Positions 11,289-62,973 are shown, numbered from the stretch's first letter. The stretch: DNA of 64,000 nucleotides from an uncultured Pirellulales bacterium (GCA_964568985.1 CAZMSP010000001.1:11179-75178); one strand, 5' to 3'. Made by a program: numbers and translations. Notes: generated by a model not told the origin, from the sequence alone.

Positions 11289-11583
11289 ATCCTCGAATAA
11301 TAAATGCCGCTGAAATACCCTTCTAAGCAGATGGGTGATGAGGCAGTACGTCTATTATCATACAGAAGACCTCTTCTATATAACTTTTCCCCTCATTCAC
11401 GCATGGATTCTTTGTCTGCGTAAAGTCCACCTGCGTTAGATCCTGTGATTTTAACGATAAACAAAATTTGGGGGATATGCCGACATCAATATAGCCGGGT
11501 TATCTGCTCTCGTCCTGACATAAGCGCAAGCCGTAGCCAGATTGGCCACACACTACATACAGGTAACTCGGTATAACCAGAAA

Positions 11584-11738: not shown

Positions 11739-12371
11739 TTACGCCTTCATTTCGGCGACGAGTGCTTTGGTTTCGGAGGACTGGTTCTGCTGGGCATCTT
11801 TGAAGGCAGCTACGGCCGATTCGTTCTGCTGCTTGAACAGCTCATTTCCTTCGATAATCTCTTTCAAGGCCTTTGATTTTGTCCGGGCATCATTTAAGAA
11901 CTTAACCGCCTTTGTGCCATAGACCCCGCCAAACAAAGCACTGATAGCGATGGCCAACTCTAAGGCAGAATCCGCTACCTGCCAGGTGTCAGGCCTGTCG
12001 CTCGATTCAATCAAAGCCGACCTTGCAAGCTGCCAGTTAGACTGTACGAGAATATCCTCTGCGGTCTCTGCCTGAGGAAACTCCTTCGGCAGGCCATTGT
12101 AAGAAACAAAGGATCTGCTCTGCAATTCTGACAATTCCGTCAATGCCTTTAGTTTTTCCGAGGTGTCCTCATCTCTGGCGGTCTCGGCTGCTACTAACGT
12201 AGTTCGGTTGTGCAGCCAGGCGTTTTGCTTCTGCTGCTCACTCGGTGCAAATCGCAAAGTTTCACAGCCGACACAAGAAAGTGCAAAAACAATAAGTGCA
12301 CATCCGGCTACGGCACGCTTCGCCGTGACAAGAATACAGAAATAACTTGCGTTCTTTTTTGTTTTTTTCAT
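11739..12371 (-). CDS. hypothetical lipoprotein
   Basis: 210 aa. Signal plus lipobox-like LIVFALSCVGC. No other motif. Confidence 0.55.
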   Translation of the reverse strand: MKKTKKNASYFCILVTAKRAVAGCALIVFALSCVGCETLRFAPSEQQKQNAWLHNRTTLVAAETARDEDTSEKLKALTELSELQSRSFVSYNGLPKEFPQAETAEDILVQSNWQLARSALIESSDRPDTWQVADSALELAIAISALFGGVYGTKAVKFLNDARTKSKALKEIIEGNELFKQQNESAVAAFKDAQQNQSSETKALVAEMKA

Positions 12372-23923: not shown

Positions 23924-23990
23924 GATTAGTGATTGGTTAAATGGTAACCGGTTAAATTGTTACTGATTACCGATTACCAGTTACCATAAT
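23924..23990. repeat. palindromic word array (GATTNGT / GTTACCA words) centred on TAACCGGTTA
   Basis: Fills the scaffold-capsid spacer. Related words recur at 49127-49293. Confidence 0.65.
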
Positions 23991-24523
23991 CATAAAAAAT
24001 TTCTTCGCAGTCTCAGATACTCCTGCAAATCTGTTCGATTACCTGTGGTTGCCGCTTTTTTGGCTGCTCTTTCGAGAGTCGCCTGACTGCTTGTCACTCG
24101 CTGCCTTGCCCCTGCGGTTTTAGTAATCTTCATCGTCGAACTTTCTCCAGGTTGGGCGAACAGATATTGCTTTTCCTTTTTCAACTGCTCAACAACACTT
24201 TCCAGATCCGCTTCTGTTTCGCCGTTTAGTCTTGCTTTGGCAATTAACACAGCTGTTTCCACATCAGCTGCTCCGGCAGCAGCAAGTCTGCGCGCCAGTT
24301 TCTGTTCGGTCCGAATGTCACTTAGTTGCTCAGACAGCTTTGTTAGCTGCGACTTGGCTTGTGCCAATTGTTCAGATAGAACCTCGGCCTTTTTCTCGGC
24401 ACTCTGTGCCCTCTTGCGATAGCGGATTGATTCGGCCACCGGAACAAGCTTTAAGTTATCGCTGTCACCGGCTGACTCTTCTGCCTCTGACAGAACATTT
24501 GCTTCTGTGTCAATCTGACTCAT
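23990..24523 (-). CDS. phage scaffolding protein
   Basis: 177 aa, charged alpha-helical coiled-coil (AEKKAEVLSEQLAQAKSQLTKLSEQLSDIRTEQ). Lies between the portal and capsid genes. Confidence 0.65.
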   Translation of the reverse strand: MSQIDTEANVLSEAEESAGDSDNLKLVPVAESIRYRKRAQSAEKKAEVLSEQLAQAKSQLTKLSEQLSDIRTEQKLARRLAAAGAADVETAVLIAKARLNGETEADLESVVEQLKKEKQYLFAQPGESSTMKITKTAGARQRVTSSQATLERAAKKAATTGNRTDLQEYLRLRRNFL

Positions 24524-24536
24524 AAAAACTCCTTTA

Positions 24537-24584
24537 CGTTCATAGTTTTGAGTTCATAGTTCATCGGTGAACAACGAACTATGG
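24537..24584. repeat. AGTTCAT heptamer array with inverted arm
   Basis: cgttcat agttttg agttcat agttcat cggtgaa caacgaa ctatgg. Spans the portal stop codon at 24579-24581. Confidence 0.65.
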
Positions 24585-26159
24585 ACTCTCATATCCTAAC
24601 TCTCTGAGCACCTGTTCAGTTGGCACGCCCAGCTCTTTTTTAATTTGGGCCTCTTTTAGTTTTTCCGTCATATCTTCCGGCAGCGGGCTGGGGAAAATAA
24701 CATCAATCTCTCTTTGGCACTCAGAGGTCTTGTAGATGTCAGCCTTATCGAGTATTGCCAGAACAAACCGGCAGATTTTTTTCAGCCCTTCGCTGTATGT
24801 AAATTTCTTCCGTTCGGTTTTGGACAGCATTCCCATAAGCGTTAGTCGAAGAGCAACCGCACTTGTCAGGTTGCCGAGCTTGCTCTTGAGAACCCCAGCT
24901 ACAAGAGGCGTTACACCACTTGCTTTGTCCATCGCCTCCCTGATTTCAGCAATGTGTAAACTCTCACTTGGCGCCGCAGCATCTCCTCCAAACTCCTCAA
25001 TAGCCGCATCTGGATTATCCGTGTACCACATCCTGCCTGGAGAGATGGGCCTGTCCTCAAAGCCCTCTATGCCTTTTCCAAGATACATCTTGAACGACTG
25101 GAACGTAATCCTGCTTGCCCTGTCGCTTAATCTCGTATTAAGCTCATCCTGCAGCGGTATCAGCGGCTCGGCATCACTTAGCCCCTCGTAATAATATGGC
25201 TGAGCGATATTCTGGATATGCACCACCGGCAGAAATCCCCACGGTAATTCACCTTCCGCAACGAGCTGTTTGTCTTCATATCTCTGCCAGGCCGAGTCCG
25301 ATGTAACCTCTGTTACCACTACCACCTGCCGAGTATCGCCGCTTTGCCTGCCCCACGTAAACAGGTTGGAAAGAAAAGAGTTCTTCTTGGTCATCGCATT
25401 TCTTTTCTGGTAGAAGTGCTGCACGTAGAACCTTGTTTTTTTGTAGTCGTTTTCATCCAGAACAGGCAGTGCTCTCGGTGCTTCAATCAGCTCAAGGCCG
25501 ATTGTCCGTGCCAATTGCAGCACATCTTCGAACGAAGTTTTTTTAGAGGGTGAGGAGGAAGAGAAGGAAGACGAAGTGCGTTCTAAGATATCTGTGCCAG
25601 GCCTGATTAGGCAGTCGACAAAACCGTAAACACCTCCGAGCACCGCCATATCCTGGAAAAATCCGATTCCGCCGTTAGCCACAAAAACCGCCTTTAATAT
25701 GGTTTCAATCTCTGAGCGTTTTTGGCTATCCGGCGACCTCGAAACAAAACTAATTGGTTTGCCGAACAAAAAGTCAACCGCTGCGTTTATTCGCCAGGCA
25801 ATATCATTTTCAACAACTACTTCTTTTCGCTGCACATCTTTGACTGCCCGGCCGCCAAATACTCCAGCATCACTGCAATGCGCCAGGCCCGTTATCCTCG
25901 CAGGCAGACCATACTCCTGCGCCTGCACATAACACCTGCCTGATTCGCTCGTCCTTTTGTCGTAGCCGCTTATGCCATTTAGCTCATACGTCGGATTTGC
26001 ATAATATTCCCACAGCTTTGTAAAGTGCTTCTGTATATCAACCGAGTGCTCATCAACAAGCCATTCGAGGAAATCCGCATCAAGCTCGTCAGGGCGAAGG
26101 CCCTGCTGTGGTTCCGACTCGCACTCAGCCGAGTTAAAAATATCAAGCTCAAATCCCAT
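24579..26159 (-). CDS. phage portal protein
   Basis: About 526 aa from ATG 26159 (GGAG 8 nt upstream). Size and position fit a portal. The ORF-track extension to 26312 reads through REP-like elements and is probably not coding. Confidence 0.7.
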   Translation of the reverse strand: MGFELDIFNSAECESEPQQGLRPDELDADFLEWLVDEHSVDIQKHFTKLWEYYANPTYELNGISGYDKRTSESGRCYVQAQEYGLPARITGLAHCSDAGVFGGRAVKDVQRKEVVVENDIAWRINAAVDFLFGKPISFVSRSPDSQKRSEIETILKAVFVANGGIGFFQDMAVLGGVYGFVDCLIRPGTDILERTSSSFSSSSPSKKTSFEDVLQLARTIGLELIEAPRALPVLDENDYKKTRFYVQHFYQKRNAMTKKNSFLSNLFTWGRQSGDTRQVVVVTEVTSDSAWQRYEDKQLVAEGELPWGFLPVVHIQNIAQPYYYEGLSDAEPLIPLQDELNTRLSDRASRITFQSFKMYLGKGIEGFEDRPISPGRMWYTDNPDAAIEEFGGDAAAPSESLHIAEIREAMDKASGVTPLVAGVLKSKLGNLTSAVALRLTLMGMLSKTERKKFTYSEGLKKICRFVLAILDKADIYKTSECQREIDVIFPSPLPEDMTEKLKEAQIKKELGVPTEQVLRELGYESP

Positions 26160-26190
26160 ATCTATCTCCACTTTCGAGTATCCAACTATC

Positions 26191-26534: not shown

Positions 26535-27338
26535 TTAGAACCAAGAGCCGGAAATCAGATATCGAGAATCAAGCATCGAGTGCCAAGATCTGCGTCTTTT
26601 CCTCAACACCAATCCGCCTATGCCGAGCAGCAAGAGAGTTGTAGGTTCCGGAATAAGAACAATTCTGGCATCGTTGCCGATATAAAAATCATTATCAAAT
26701 AGTTCACCGCTTAAAAGCGTGCCCGTCAGGTGCCTAAGGGGTTCATAGTCAGGCAAGCCACCATAGATACTGGTAAGTTCTCCGTAACCTAATGGCTGAC
26801 CATCGACGGCAAAATCATAGCCGAATATTCGTATCTTACTCTGCCCCCATAGTCTCAAGTCACCGCTTATTGTTCCGCCGAAGACATTTATTTGGCCGGA
26901 GCTAGAGCTGACAAGGTCTCCTATTGATCCGCCGGAGATATCTGCGTGGCTGGATTCCCAACTGACAAGACCATATATAAAGCCGCCGGAGATATTTAGC
27001 TGGCTGGAACCCCAACTGTCAAGCCGATCTTCTATTGAACCGCCGGAGATATCTACCTGGCTAAAATCCCAGCTTTCAAGAAAGCCTACTGAGCCGCCGA
27101 GGATATTTATTCTGCTGTGTTCACATCCAATAAGGGCTCTGGCGTGCGCACCAGCCAGCCAGTTTACTGTGGTGTACATATATGGTGTCTGAGAGTCCAC
27201 GTAGACATAGTCGATGATTTGATAGTCGATGTCGTGTGTCAGGCCATCTTTGAATTCTATTAACGCATGTGCCGGGCAAGCGCACAGTAACAATACGACC
27301 GCTGCAATAAATATTGTCTTTATACCCTTCACCTTCAC
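26535..27338 (-). CDS. PEP-CTERM-anchored secreted repeat protein
   Basis: GTG start with GAGGAGG RBS. Signal peptide. About five 22-aa repeats (ISGGSIxxxLxSWxxSQxx). C-terminal PEPTTLLLLGIGGLVLRKRRR sorting signal. Confidence 0.8.
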   Translation of the reverse strand: MKVKGIKTIFIAAVVLLLCACPAHALIEFKDGLTHDIDYQIIDYVYVDSQTPYMYTTVNWLAGAHARALIGCEHSRINILGGSVGFLESWDFSQVDISGGSIEDRLDSWGSSQLNISGGFIYGLVSWESSHADISGGSIGDLVSSSSGQINVFGGTISGDLRLWGQSKIRIFGYDFAVDGQPLGYGELTSIYGGLPDYEPLRHLTGTLLSGELFDNDFYIGNDARIVLIPEPTTLLLLGIGGLVLRKRRRSWHSMLDSRYLISGSWF

Positions 27339-28677: not shown

Positions 28678-28690
28678 CTTTTATATCCAC

Positions 28691-28724
28691 TCGTCAGGGC
28701 GAAGCCCACCGTAGCCCGAGGCCC
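28691..28724. repeat. REP-like element TCGTCAGGGCGAAGCCCACCGTAGCCCGAGGCCC
   Basis: Related copies lie inside ORFs at 61610-61643 (dinG-like) and 26087-26112 (portal, short form). Confidence 0.7.
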
Positions 28725-28909
28725 TGCCGTAGTATTGAAAATCTGTTCGATTTCTACCCTTAGTATAACCTCCCACTTAGCAATCGTCAAGATGGCTTAT
28801 GCCGATGTAAAATCTTTTCCTTTTACTTGCTTTGTGTTTTCGTGCCCCGTGAGAACTTGACGTCTTGTTTCTAACGGGGCGTGGCTGAAGTTCACTTTGA
28901 AAAAACGGG

Positions 28910-30232: not shown

Positions 30233-30889
30233 TTATTTGCGGCGACGCAGGGGAAGTCCGCCGAGGCAAAAAAGAAGTACAGTTGCCGGCTCAGGAATGG
30301 ATGTTATTGTTAAATCAGCCGCTGGCGGAAATTCCAAAGAATTAAAAGACAAATATGGGCCATTTACCGCAATTGTAGAGGGAATTGCAAATTGGAAATT
30401 AAATCCGGCAAAATCATCGCCGTTAGCATATAAATCCTTTATGACATCTGTAACATCCAAGGTGATAAATGGTTCCAGCGAATACTCAAATGAGGTAAAA
30501 AAAGAACCTGCGTTAAAGTCATCCAGTGACAATAAGCCATCGCCTGTATAGGTAAATACGTCAATCGTAAAAGGATAGGGCTGTTCTGAGCTATGGACGT
30601 TTAATGATAGTTGTGCCTGCACTATAGGCACCGGTATTGCGGGAAGAGCGAACTCGATAATTCCGCGGTCTTCAAACGGCAACGAAGGACGTTCAACATC
30701 TAGTACTTGAACGGCAACGCCATCTCCAATATAGTCTGGAATACCGTCTTTGAGTGAGTATAGTCCATCCCGAATAGATCCATCTACATTAGGCATTAAT
30801 GAGACCGCGATAGCCGGCTGACTTTCAGTAAGTACCGAAAAAGCCAATATAATCGCAAATGTGAGCGCTTTAATCAGTCGTGTTTTCAT
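30233..30889 (-). CDS. PEP-CTERM-anchored secreted protein
   Basis: Signal peptide MKTRLIKALTFAIILAFSVLTESQPAIA from ATG 30889. C-terminal PEPATVLLFCLGGLPLRRRK. Confidence 0.8.
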   Translation of the reverse strand: MKTRLIKALTFAIILAFSVLTESQPAIAVSLMPNVDGSIRDGLYSLKDGIPDYIGDGVAVQVLDVERPSLPFEDRGIIEFALPAIPVPIVQAQLSLNVHSSEQPYPFTIDVFTYTGDGLLSLDDFNAGSFFTSFEYSLEPFITLDVTDVIKDLYANGDDFAGFNFQFAIPSTIAVNGPYLSFNSLEFPPAADLTITSIPEPATVLLFCLGGLPLRRRK

Positions 30890-30998
30890 CGTTATGACCC
30901 TTTCTACTCCGTTCTTGGGCATTAAACAGCGATTTTGTGTGTAAAGCTTGGAATGGCCTTTGCCGAGCTTCCATACCCAGCCTTCCTTGGTAAGCATA

Positions 30999-59369: not shown

Positions 59370-60836
59370 ATGCAGGGTACATTCACGGATGATAAGCTCC
59401 GCTCTGCCGAAAACCAGATAAGCGCTATTAACGAAGCTCTCGCCAGGAATATAGGCCCACAAAAGTTTCGTATCTGGTTTAATAACTCAACCAGGCTTGC
59501 CCTTACCGGCAGCTATCTAAAGGTTGGTGTGCCAAACCTTTTCATTGCAAGCTGGATTGAAAATCACTTTGCAAACGAAATCAGTAAGGCGGTCAAAGAA
59601 GTTACCGGAGCCCATCGAAAGATTACATTCGCTATCGACCCCGAGCTTTCAGGCAGCCAGAGACGGACGCAGCTGGACTCACAGGCACGACGCGCAGCTC
59701 GTTCATCTATCCCCGGTTCTCGACGAGCATCGAGCATCCAGCATAGAGCATCCGGAAAGCTGAAATATAATCTGGATACATTTGTTGTCGGCCGCTCAAA
59801 TGAGCTTGCTTACAATGCTGCAAAAGCAGTTGTAAATGAGCAAAGAAGCCCTTTCAATCCTCTCTTTATTCACGGAGGATATGGCGTCGGCAAAACACAC
59901 CTGCTGCAGGGAATTTGCAAGGCAGTTTCCAAAAAGCGACCTCAGGCCAATTGGCTTTATCTGTCAGCCGAGGATTTCGTTAACCAGTTTGTATTGGCCT
60001 TGAAAATAAAAAAGCTCGAGCACTTTCGACAAAAAATGAGACAAACAGACTTGTTAGCTATCGACGATATCCACTTTTTGGCAAGCAAGCCATCAACGCA
60101 GGAAGAATTTCTGCATACCTTCAACACCATCAATCTTGCAGGCAAACAGGTCGTGCTGGCCTCCGACGCACATCCAAAGATGATAGGGCAACTGTCCGAA
60201 AAGCTAATTAACCGCTTCATCTCTGGCATGGTCGTCAAAATCAATAGCCCTGATTTCCAGACCCGCTGTGAAATCTGCCAGCAATACGCTGCTGCTATGA
60301 TGGGAGCAAACTTTGGCGCAGCCCATAAGAGGCTGGCCCAAAAGCAAATCCCCGAAAATGTAATAAGATATGTTGCCGAAAATCTGCGCTCCAACGTACG
60401 GGAGCTGGAAGGGGCAATGATGAAATTAGTTGCTTATTCGGCTCTGCAAAATGAGAAGGTTAATCTGTCTATGGCCCAGGAGGTTCTGGCTGAACACCTT
60501 GCCAGGACTGACCCCATTGTGCACATATCGGATATCGAATCAGCCGTCGCTACATATTTCGGCTTAACACCGGCCAATATACATTCATCCAAGAAGGATA
60601 GAACCATAGCCCTCGCCCGGCATTTTAGTATGTATCTGACGAGAAAACACACAAAGATGTCGTTCTCTGAGATTGGCAGATTTATGGGCAATAAAAATCA
60701 CGCCACCGTACTTCTGGCCTGCAGAAAGGTTGAAGACTTTATCAACAGAAATGTGGAGCTTCACTGGCTTTCGCCTGTCGGCAATAAAATCGCAAAGGCA
60801 AAAACCATTCTCGCCGAGCTTGAAGCAAGCATATAA
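59370..60836 (+). CDS. dnaA: chromosomal replication initiator DnaA
   Basis: Walker A GGYGVGKTHLL, Walker B DDIHFL and a C-terminal DNA-binding HTH (ALARHFSMYLTRKHT..FSEIGRFMGNKNHATV). The domain II linker carries a heptamer array. Confidence 0.95.
   Translation: MQGTFTDDKLRSAENQISAINEALARNIGPQKFRIWFNNSTRLALTGSYLKVGVPNLFIASWIENHFANEISKAVKEVTGAHRKITFAIDPELSGSQRRTQLDSQARRAARSSIPGSRRASSIQHRASGKLKYNLDTFVVGRSNELAYNAAKAVVNEQRSPFNPLFIHGGYGVGKTHLLQGICKAVSKKRPQANWLYLSAEDFVNQFVLALKIKKLEHFRQKMRQTDLLAIDDIHFLASKPSTQEEFLHTFNTINLAGKQVVLASDAHPKMIGQLSEKLINRFISGMVVKINSPDFQTRCEICQQYAAAMMGANFGAAHKRLAQKQIPENVIRYVAENLRSNVRELEGAMMKLVAYSALQNEKVNLSMAQEVLAEHLARTDPIVHISDIESAVATYFGLTPANIHSSKKDRTIALARHFSMYLTRKHTKMSFSEIGRFMGNKNHATVLLACRKVEDFINRNVELHWLSPVGNKIAKAKTILAELEASI
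59715..59756. repeat. heptamer array (ATNNAGC words) in frame within the dnaA linker
   Basis: ggttctc gacgagc atcgagc atccagc atagagc atccgga. The 15-mer TTCTCGACGAGCATC (59717-59731) is identical to 55547-55561. Confidence 0.8.
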
Positions 60837-60957: not shown

Positions 60958-62973
60958 TCACGAGCCACAGGCGACGATTTTTGTTTTACATTTCGGTATC
61001 GCATCCAGGAATCTCTGACCGTATGGCTTATTGACGATTCGGCTGTCCAGAATAACCACGATGCCGGTATCGCTCTTGGCGCGAATCAGCCGGCCGAAGC
61101 CCTGCTTGAATTTTAGTATCGCCGACGGCAATTGATAATCATAAAAGGGATTTCCACCCTGTTGCCTTATCTGCTCGATTCTACCTGCAATCAATGGCTT
61201 GTCAGGCACCGCAAATGGCAGCCGAACAATAATAACATTACTCAACGCTTCGCCCGGCACATCTACTCCCTGCCAGAAACTATCCGTCCCGAATAAAACT
61301 GATGCGTCCTCTTCTTTGAAACGTCCCAAAAGCACAGTCCTGTCAAGTCCCGCCCCTTGCTGCAAAAGCTCAATTTTATTTTCAGTCAGCCAATCAGACA
61401 TCTTCTCAGCCATTTCATCAAGCATCTCGTAGCTGGTAAAAAGAACAAACGCTTTGCCTTTGGTTTGAAGGATATATTTTTTCAAGGCATCTATTGCCTT
61501 TTCGATAAATTCCGGCTCATTCGGGTCAGGCAGGTTCTTTTCGATATAGATAGTAACCTGCCTCTCATAATCGAAAGGCGAACCCAGCTTAAAGGCATCA
61601 AAATCCTCCTCGTCGGGGCGAAGCCCGCCGTAGCCCGACAGCCCAATCCTGCTGGCAAAGAACTCGAATCCGCCCTTTTCGGATATCGCTTCGCTGCTCA
61701 GCGTTGCGCTGGTCATAATCACAGATTCATATTTATCCAACAGACAGCGTTTCACATCCTGTCCGACATTTATGGCCGCACTTTTTAAGCGAATAGTCGT
61801 TTTTCTTTCCGTATCAACCTCCACCCAATAGACGTAATTTTTTGCTTTCTGCAGCAAAAAACCGTCAATATCCTCAGCTAAAACTGCGCACCTGTCTACA
61901 AAACGCAGAATCTCAAATTTCTCATCTACATCTTCGGTATTCTTCGCAAGTTTACTCAGTTCCGACCGCAGATTGTTAAGATGTCCCGACAGATTGTTAT
62001 CGATAAAAGTTGCATAACATCTGCCGTTGGTTTCGTTTTTATTGCTTTCATACCAGTTCCTTACCTTCTTAAAGAAGCTGCTTGCCTCTTTAGTTATTCT
62101 GCCGAGGATATCAATCACCTTATCTACCTTGGTGAAAGCCAAAAGTCCTTTATGAGTTCTCGGATTGTAAAGGCCGTTAAGCAGAAATTGAACTCTGTGA
62201 TTGCTGATATCGATTCCGAAATGCTCTTCCGCTACATGCTCGATATTCTGCGCCTCATCGATGATGATGTATCTGTAATCCGGCAGCACCGATGCACCCT
62301 GTTCTTTGAGCACAAGGTCGCTAAATAATAGTGCATGGTTGGTCACAATTATATCAGCGCTGTCCAGTTGCCGTCGTGCCCGCCAGTAGAAGCAGTCGCG
62401 AAAGTATTTGCACTTTCTGCTGCGACAATTGCCGTGTTCGCTGCTGACCGCATCCCACACCGTCGGACGCGGAACAAAACCGAGGTCGCTCAGCGAGCCG
62501 TCTTCTGTATGCTTAACCCAGTCGTTTATCACCGCAAGCTGCGAAGCTGCTCTGTCAAATAATAAGCTCTGCCTTTGCAGGGCAAACTCCAGCCGGCGTT
62601 TGCATATATAATTACCTCTTCCCTTTGCCAATGCCGCCGTGAAATTATACGGCAGACAATCAGCCAGAAATGGAATGTCTTTATTGGTTAGCTGCTCCTG
62701 CAGCGTAATGGTAAAGGTGCTGATTAAAACTTTTGTTTTTGCTCTGTTGACCAGTCCGCCGTACGTCTGGCGGGCAAGCTCAATAGCAGGGACAAGATAT
62801 GCGAAGCTTTTGCCGACGCCAGTGCCTGCCTCGACGACCAAATGACGGCCCTGCGAAAGCCCTTGTTGTACCGCACAGGCCATCTGCAATTGCTGGGGCC
62901 TGTCCTCAAAACTCACTAAGGATTGCGATAAAAGACCTCCCGCCGCAAATACCTCTTGTAGAGCTGCCTCCAT
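60958..62973 (-). CDS. dinG: DinG/XPD-family Fe-S ATP-dependent helicase
   Basis: Walker A AGTGVGKSFAYL. DEAQ box (IIIDEAQNIE). Cys cluster (C..C, CRSRKCKYFRDC). 671 aa. Confidence 0.85.
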   Translation of the reverse strand: MEAALQEVFAAGGLLSQSLVSFEDRPQQLQMACAVQQGLSQGRHLVVEAGTGVGKSFAYLVPAIELARQTYGGLVNRAKTKVLISTFTITLQEQLTNKDIPFLADCLPYNFTAALAKGRGNYICKRRLEFALQRQSLLFDRAASQLAVINDWVKHTEDGSLSDLGFVPRPTVWDAVSSEHGNCRSRKCKYFRDCFYWRARRQLDSADIIVTNHALLFSDLVLKEQGASVLPDYRYIIIDEAQNIEHVAEEHFGIDISNHRVQFLLNGLYNPRTHKGLLAFTKVDKVIDILGRITKEASSFFKKVRNWYESNKNETNGRCYATFIDNNLSGHLNNLRSELSKLAKNTEDVDEKFEILRFVDRCAVLAEDIDGFLLQKAKNYVYWVEVDTERKTTIRLKSAAINVGQDVKRCLLDKYESVIMTSATLSSEAISEKGGFEFFASRIGLSGYGGLRPDEEDFDAFKLGSPFDYERQVTIYIEKNLPDPNEPEFIEKAIDALKKYILQTKGKAFVLFTSYEMLDEMAEKMSDWLTENKIELLQQGAGLDRTVLLGRFKEEDASVLFGTDSFWQGVDVPGEALSNVIIVRLPFAVPDKPLIAGRIEQIRQQGGNPFYDYQLPSAILKFKQGFGRLIRAKSDTGIVVILDSRIVNKPYGQRFLDAIPKCKTKIVACGS

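Follow-up and report, generated by a model that had tools for sequence, protein, structure and literature searches.

A REP-like repeat family found within the DinG-like helicase gene, the portal gene and intergenic DNA of an uncultured Pirellulales bacterium

Results

Copies of a short repeat in the analysed window

The DNA analysed here (the window) was a 64,000-nt stretch from an uncultured Pirellulales bacterium (GCA_964568985.1, CAZMSP010000001.1:11179-75178). It contains a DinG/XPD-like helicase gene and an SPP1-type phage portal gene, and a repeat resembling repetitive extragenic palindromic (REP) sequences is found inside both of them and at an intergenic position (Table 1). Very probably, what recurs at these three sites is a short REP-like mobile DNA element that is non-autonomous. 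The initial annotation had placed them at 28691-28724 (site A, intergenic), 61610-61643 (site B, helicase) and 26087-26112 (site C, portal), and all three read as described there. The recurrence of the site A element at site B was also confirmed, with identity at 27 of 29 core positions and at 29 of 34 over the full stretch; when the window was searched with up to three mismatches, A and B were the sole matches, and 0.00 were expected from shuffles. The positions of the sites held, and the boundaries of the units were corrected to those given in Table 1. What had to be abandoned was the view of the portal copy as the site A element without its inner 16 nt. The portal copy belongs to a separate 33-nt subfamily, CTCGTCAGGGCGAAGGCCCTGCCGTAGTCCCGA (seen on contigs C113, C37 and C67), which it matches at 30 of 33 positions, the three differences all being transitions in the GTAG box, and site A is this 33-nt subfamily carrying 16 additional bases in its loop.

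Two window copies beyond these three were found, one of them in an open reading frame (ORF) whose signal peptide looks lipoprotein-like, and the other between convergent ORFs. Site A precedes the ATG (28677) of a PfkB kinase gene by 13 nt and lies about 170 nt downstream of the previous ORF, and a 46-nt compound identical to that of site A is present elsewhere in the same genome with different flanks (G000:C67:11306).

Table 1. Copies of the repeat in the window and the two genes first found to contain it
Feature	Position	Strand	Description
DinG copy	61609..61638	+ (translated on -)	30-nt unit CTCGTCGGGGCGAAGCCCGCCGTAGCCCGA; SGYGGLRPDE, aa 446-455 of helicase; boundary ambiguous by 1 nt
Portal copy	26085..26117	+ (translated on -)	33-nt unit CTCGTCAGGGCGAAGGCCCTGCTGTGGTTCCGA; SEPQQGLRPDE; 6-bp stem, GAAG loop, GTAG box mutated
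Site A	28690..28738	+	Intergenic 49-nt compound: 30-nt unit 28690-28719, then 3' half of 33-nt unit (GGCCCTGCCGTAGT...)
Signal-peptide copy	12303..12332	-	30-nt unit CTTGTCACGGCGAAGCGTGCCGTAGCCGGA, in frame (LVTAKRAVAG) in ORF 11739..12371(-)
Degenerate copy	11509..11541	+	33 nt between convergent ORFs; both boxes intact, stem decayed
DinG/XPD-like helicase	60958..62973	-	671 aa; Pfam Helicase_C_2 1e-47, DEAD, DEAD_2
SPP1-type portal	24579..26165	-	Pfam SPP1_portal 3e-17

Anatomy and copy number of the family

The window's genome is a metagenome-assembled genome (MAG) of 203 contigs, 2.17 Mb and 45% G+C. A strict census was carried out in which a copy needed a stem of 4 bp or longer and no more than one mismatch in two boxes, with reversed boxes as the control; a fuzzy search with its own control was aimed at the commonest class, that with a 14-nt hairpin. 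Anchors with two mismatches were not used because their controls matched as often as the real patterns. At least 55 strict copies were obtained, against 6 with the reversed boxes, and the fuzzy search gave 52 matches against 0 in its control, 28 of them beyond the strict set. The loose total came to about 81 copies, the core of the family being present on many contigs; the census bore out a genuine REP-like family.

The layout of the family is 5'-CT-CGTC-(stem, GCGRAG or GAAG loop, stem)-CC-GTAG-CC-SGR-3', in which the 3' box and end can be written CCGTAGCC-SGR. CTCGTC is almost invariant at the 5' end of the unit; GTAG is conserved too, but it stands inside the 11-nt 3' tail and is not terminal. 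The unit measures 30, 33 or 36 nt depending on its hairpin, which is chiefly 14, 17 or 20 nt long (a 16-nt class also exists) and has a G/C-rich stem of 4-8 bp and a loop of 3-6 nt. Among 43 distinct 30-mers, the stem pairs 7-18 and 8-17 were found to covary (AU/GC/UA and GC/CG/AU); the covariation score was reached by none of 500 shuffles, and slid controls collapsed. Covariation of position 8 with position 28 additionally lends support to an alternative helix, 8-11/25-28. No inverted repeat is formed by the ends CTCGTC and CCSGR.

No family was matched when the window was scanned against Rfam at the gathering threshold. A likeness of CUGACGAG to the hammerhead core was considered and rejected, as the DinG copy has CCGACGAG and the other core elements are absent. 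Likewise, stop-free frames could not be taken as an adaptation: five of the six frames are open, yet a G+C-rich 30-mer is expected to be largely stop-free. By our own estimate, the probability of a stop in such a 30-mer is about 1.5% per codon.

The helicase copy is an exact 30-nt insertion

For comparison, 31 genomes of the order were used, the genus being represented by nine species; taxon labels on MAG records are unreliable, and the congeners of the window's bacterium carry the label Pirellulales. DinG orthologues were recovered from 29 of the 31 relatives. SGYGGLRPDE was missing in all 26 other aligned proteins, including those of congeners at 80-86% identity. In the DNA alignment, seven congeners show a gap of exactly 30 bases, which the window carries between ...GGGCT and GGAGGA... 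(ambiguity of 1 nt). The alignment thus established a lineage-specific, exact insertion. The DinG genes of G002 and G007 also carry a 30-nt unit, located about 20 codons upstream of the window's site and reading GYGGLRPDE and GYGALGPDE, respectively; since this position is a different one, the unit must have entered the DinG gene at least twice.

In the AlphaFold2 model of the helicase (pTM, the predicted template modelling score, 0.85), the per-residue confidence (pLDDT) fell below 50 at residues 71-78, 429-433 and 448-455 and nowhere else. The segment 448-455 corresponds to the 30-nt insert and 429-433 to the loop bearing the units of the congeners. The DinG peptide sits in a variable linker and is modelled as a disordered loop. 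Neither this segment nor that of the portal was found to fall within a conserved motif of its protein, a placement that the initial annotation had regarded as a sign of convergence.

Other inserts were observed in the DinG-like genes. In two family-level relatives (G036:C37 and G037:C227), about 90-100 extra in-frame bases interrupt the DinG match at query residue 431/432, in the same variable loop that holds the 30-nt unit in G002 and G007. The window's helicase also has a 24-nt in-frame insert, GCCCGCCAGACGTACGGCGGACTG (62752-62775, minus strand; peptide LARQTYGG, aa 66-73), which is common only to congener G008 and overlaps the low-confidence residues 71-78. This insert is a member of a second hairpin family, (R)YCCGCC-AGACGTAC-GGCGG(R)Y, of which the genome holds at least 38 copies. 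Further in-frame inserts of 16-33 codons are present in congener DinG genes (L003:1710-1795, L006, L007, L013 and L005), one example being an 81-nt palindromic unit in G001 (CCCCATTAGAAATTTC...GAAAGATTTCTAACGGGG); after aa 556, inserts of about 90-100 nt are found in G006 and G008. The dnaA gene (window 59370-60836, plus strand) and the end of the DinG-like gene are 120 nt apart, so the window takes in the probable region of the replication origin.

The portal copy lies in a vertically inherited gene

Site C in the minus-strand portal ORF reads ...SEPQQGLRPDEL near the N-terminus. The N-terminus of the portal is variable, and the extra segment SEPQQGLRPDE was found in the window alone; alignment of the orthologues showed that the additional 27-33 nt are missing in six congeners. 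The DNA fold of the portal copy gave a z-score of -2.25. The portal was present in 25 of the 31 genomes of the order, with identities of 52-91% that track the divergence of DinG, indicating a phage-derived gene that has been inherited vertically. The contrast drawn earlier between a host gene and a phage gene is therefore weaker than had been stated. A weak match to a scaffold protein adjoins the portal at 23990-24523, and the portal and its neighbours look like a vertically inherited, phage-derived particle cluster. Elsewhere in the window, two ORFs end in PEP-CTERM-like sorting signals, 26535-27338 (minus strand; IPEPTTLLLLGIGGLVLRKRRR) and 30233-30997 (minus strand; IPEPATVLLFCLGGLPLRRRK).

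Copies in other genes are read in several frames

Altogether 24 of the 81 copies fell within open frames 180 or more codons long, every orientation and phase being represented. The element was found within a single Pfam envelope in eight cases (PilM_2, NTPase_1, Rce1-like, Maf, DnaE HHH_6, Aminotran_1_2, YjeF_N and Acyl_transf_1); in-frame copies include those of DnaE, Maf, FabD, YjeF_N and PilM. In other genes, alternative readings such as LV.AEPAVAR, TR.GGARRSP, PATA.SA.T and more were seen. The proposal that one family contributes the same peptide to the helicase and the portal was thus upheld, with the qualification that the shared (G)LRPDE is just one of several peptides encoded by the family.

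The dnaE gene provided a second set of filled and empty alleles: 30 nt are present in G000, G001 and G007, and exactly 30 nt are absent in G002, G004, G006 and G008. (A contig of G005, 100% identical to the dnaE query and of the filled length, was left out of the alignment.) The filled alleles have diverged from one another, which indicates that this essential gene has kept the insert through speciation. At the exact position of the 30-nt element, the dnaE of L201 (G005:C183) has a different in-frame insert of 69 nt; this position may attract insertions as a hot spot, or it may just be a loop that tolerates them. The DnaE proteins of congeners also carry other in-frame palindromic inserts, and having genes decorated in frame by short repeats appears to be a trait that this lineage shows in general.

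Junctions and target preference

Every insertion that could be measured exactly, nested non-coding ones included, was 30, 33 or 36 nt long. In at least 12 cases, a nested copy of one of these lengths exactly interrupts the loop of a host copy; the inner copy always lies at GCG^RAG of the host loop and in the same orientation, and its removal restores the host copy exactly. The base 5' of the unit is identical to the last base of the unit in 41 of 59 copies, a count reached in none of 20,000 permutations (p < 5e-5), and AAG directly follows the unit in 14 of the 59, with about 1 expected. The target bias is ..GCR^AAGG, which resembles the loop of the element itself. Comparison of filled with empty alleles revealed a junction repeat of at most 1 nt and no longer duplication. 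Only three neighbouring pairs of copies lay within 300 nt, all in the same orientation, and no inverted pairs were observed.

Distribution of the family

Counts with the exact anchors in the nine species of the genus were 39, 26, 14, 15, 2, 27, 3, 42 and 14. In 22 other genomes of the family and order the counts were 0-4, and ten sister genera and eleven further members of the order stood at background level. A scan covering the genomes of about 186,000 species revealed further carriers in a patchy pattern: family-level relatives with 7-17 copies (DinG 64-73% identical; labels Phycisphaerae, Sedimentisphaerales and Planctomycetota) and a few distant carriers with 4-6 true copies (DinG 36-45% identical; labels Cloacimonadota, Sumerlaeota and Planctomycetales). 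Lone matches in Agromyces, Chloroflexia, Gemmatimonadaceae and a MAG labelled Clostridiales resemble chance hits.

Discussion

The exact boundaries, the filled and empty alleles and the census together argue for a mobile element at the three sites. The length of the unit, a multiple of three, and its G+C-rich composition with few stops keep copies in genes in frame. Such copies would be read through as peptides of 10-12 residues whose sequence is set by the orientation and phase of the insertion. Three kinds of target are used by the element: intergenic DNA, genes, and the GCG^RAG loop of other copies, the last in the same orientation. The way in which it inserts points to a mechanism that is strand-specific and recognises the hairpin. 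Since long target duplications are lacking, nested copies have a fixed orientation and targets are biased towards ..GCR^AAGG, we infer that the family may spread via a single-stranded hairpin intermediate, which would be handled in trans either by an HUH/Y1 enzyme, like those of the insertion sequence (IS) IS200 or the REP-associated tyrosine transposases (RAYTs), or by a host replication or repair enzyme. The encoded peptides would be neutral passengers that survive only in permissive loops.

A further reading, which we put forward tentatively and regard as rather unlikely, is that the family is adapted to gene interiors. Here, a frame-neutral unit would have been selected, it would insert with a 1-nt duplication at hairpin loops and GCR^AAGG-like sites, and it would have spread across phyla (Planctomycetota and the MAGs labelled Cloacimonadota and Sumerlaeota) by means of a ubiquitous host or HUH enzyme in place of a transposase of its own. 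The insertion lengths of 30, 33 and 36 nt and the clustering of hairpin lengths at 14, 17 and 20 nt form the basis of its frame-neutral part.

Several observations weigh against a mobile element and its proposed route. No dedicated transposase or mobilising enzyme could be tied to the family. A single small, marginal Y1_Tnp-like ORF is present in the window's genome (G000:C65:3909-4475, minus strand; 23 bits, HxH motif SNHVHLL), and it was rejected as a RAYT partner because the element does not flank this ORF and a different repeat does. Y1_Tnp genes occur in 28 of the 31 genomes of the order and are uncorrelated with the load of the element, and where four copies lie within 7 kb of another MAG, their neighbours are a permease, a DUF3617 protein and a methyltransferase but not a transposase. 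Neither the window's DinG site nor that of G002 fits the target consensus. The hairpin energies are modest (-5.5 to -6.8 kcal/mol), and the fold z-scores of the 30-mers (-0.1 to -0.9) were not significant against G+C-rich shuffles, so that the structural case rests on covariation, which descent of subfamilies could inflate. In the helicase model, the alignment gap accounts for part of the low pLDDT at the insert; translation of the gene copies is suggested by intact frames and conservation; and all of the genomes compared are MAGs with many contigs.

The different repeat that follows the Y1_Tnp-like ORF (L001) is rich in GTAGC and CTGCGGAGGACAGG words and is also found on contigs C19 and C30.

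Among the other explanations, the copies could have arisen without any transposase, by hairpin-induced template switching, microhomology-mediated patching or gene conversion from other copies, at GCR^AAGG-like sites. The 1-nt identity at the junction in 41 of 59 copies, a target resembling the element's own loop, the failure to find a linked transposase and the hot spots in DnaE and DinG where different repeats land at one position are all in keeping with such errors of repair or replication. We nevertheless consider this origin unlikely, as the boundaries are exact and constant across unrelated sites, and the presence of the same boxes in MAGs with DinG only 36-45% identical fits an agent that recognises the boxes better.

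It was also considered whether the element is a structured DNA or RNA signal useful to the host, such as a transcript 3' stabiliser, an attenuator or a binding site like those of gyrase or integration host factor, with the copies inside genes being tolerated by-products or tuners of expression; mobility would be compatible with such a role. Roles of this kind have been credited to REPs (Di Nocera, De Gregorio & Rocco 2013, BMC Genomics 14:522; PMC3733652), the boxes TCGTC and CCGTAGCC are conserved even in the distant MAGs, the stem covaries and the second helix (8-11/25-28) is supported too, and site A is close upstream of a start codon. Against this, the hairpin has stems of just 4-8 bp and no T-run 3' of it, no Rfam family was matched, and the copies, relative to genes, take both orientations and every frame. 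Presence and absence at the same locus, moreover, differ among congeners, and sister genera are at background level. A host signal as the primary nature of the element is accordingly quite unlikely.

It is very improbable that GYGGLRPDE is a functional peptide motif, for example a docking site, that arose by separate selection in helicase and portal: the same frame is indeed used in DinG (window, G002 and G007), the portal, the FabD-like ORF and C3, but most copies are non-coding or in other frames, the identity extends to synonymous positions, the stem covaries at the DNA level, and the peptide is absent from 26 DinG orthologues and modelled as disordered. An artefact of assembly or binning, for which only the fragmented, metagenomic nature of the genomes speaks, is hardly credible, given that insertions recur with substitutions at orthologous sites of independently assembled MAGs (DnaE of G000, G001 and G007), that frames remain open and that MAGs from different studies carry the family.

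The mobile element favoured here is probably a new family within a kind already described, namely the CGTC/GTAG-tagged REPs and the Rickettsia palindromic elements (RPEs). REPs have been sorted into GTAG- and CGTC-tagged super-families, both of which were reported in Planctomycetes; the CGTC REPs have no dedicated or flanked transposase and occasionally lie inside other palindromes, and many intragenic REPs are in replication and repair genes, including those for DnaE, UvrA/B, RecBCD and helicases (PMC3733652). Our family shares with these REPs the form of a dispersed 20-40-bp palindrome in tens to hundreds of copies, a terminal unpaired CGTC and a short tail, stems that are heterogeneous within the family, intragenic copies that include DinG and DnaE, and the lack of a linked transposase. 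From the description of the four published CGTC families (1-4) it is set apart in four ways. Its stem is 4-8 bp and G/C-rich, whereas theirs is 8-9 bp with A/T first pairs and a 4-5-nt loop; its tail is 11 nt long with GTAG (CC-GTAG-CC-SGR), whereas theirs is a 3-bp CCA; its copies form no head-to-head dimers, whereas theirs mostly do; and those of its copies that are not single are nested in the same orientation.

Two of the Rickettsia elements, RPE-4 and RPE-6, are CGTC REPs and end in CGTC (PMC3733652). RPEs are described as selfish palindromic repeats that have entered unrelated housekeeping genes in frame, where they are translated and compatible with the protein fold (Ogata et al. 2000, as cited in PMC10969869 and PMC3733652); according to the same two sources, the dnaE of R. 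conorii bears one, and RPE-1 is about 150 bp long (45-50 aa). In the family studied here, too, in-frame ORF insertions are absent from orthologues (DinG, DnaE and portal), and eight copies are in Pfam envelopes. It differs from RPEs in size and host, with a unit of 30-36 nt (10-12 aa) in another phylum, and in that several frames are read, whereas RPEs have one conserved peptide per family.

A comparison with the REPIN-RAYT system (REPIN, REP doublet forming a hairpin) is also instructive. These are short hairpin repeats with a GTAG box that are thought to be moved as single-stranded DNA by a Y1/HUH transposase acting in trans (Bertels & Rainey 2011, PMC3116915; Nunvar et al. 2010, PMC2817692). 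A short hairpin repeat with a GTAG box is likewise found here; however, there are no inverted doublets, GTAG is 3' of the hairpin and not at its head, and no RAYT flanked by the element was found; across the 31 genomes, Y1_Tnp genes are uncorrelated with it. As with palindrome-associated elements derived from IS200/IS605, there is no long target duplication and insertion appears to be oriented beside a preferred short target, which the window's DinG site and the G002 site do not fit; only one hairpin is present and a parent IS was not identified. [quoted passage not shown]

For the poorly understood class of CGTC/GTAG REPs, the family thus supplies a well-resolved example from an uncultured lineage of planctomycetes, in which boundaries are exact and alleles are known both filled and empty. 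How REPs without a transposase move, a question that was left open by the 2013 survey, is constrained in a testable way by its exact junctions, by the identity of 1 nt at them and by the bias of its targets. For annotation, inserts of 10-12 residues explain lineage-specific 'indels' in conserved proteins of this clade. A unit of 30 nt can insert precisely, nest in its own loop and persist in frame in essential genes across speciation, as in DnaE and the DinG-like helicase. If the frame-neutral reading is true, no smaller mobile unit would have been described that remodels essential proteins of replication and repair as a matter of routine.

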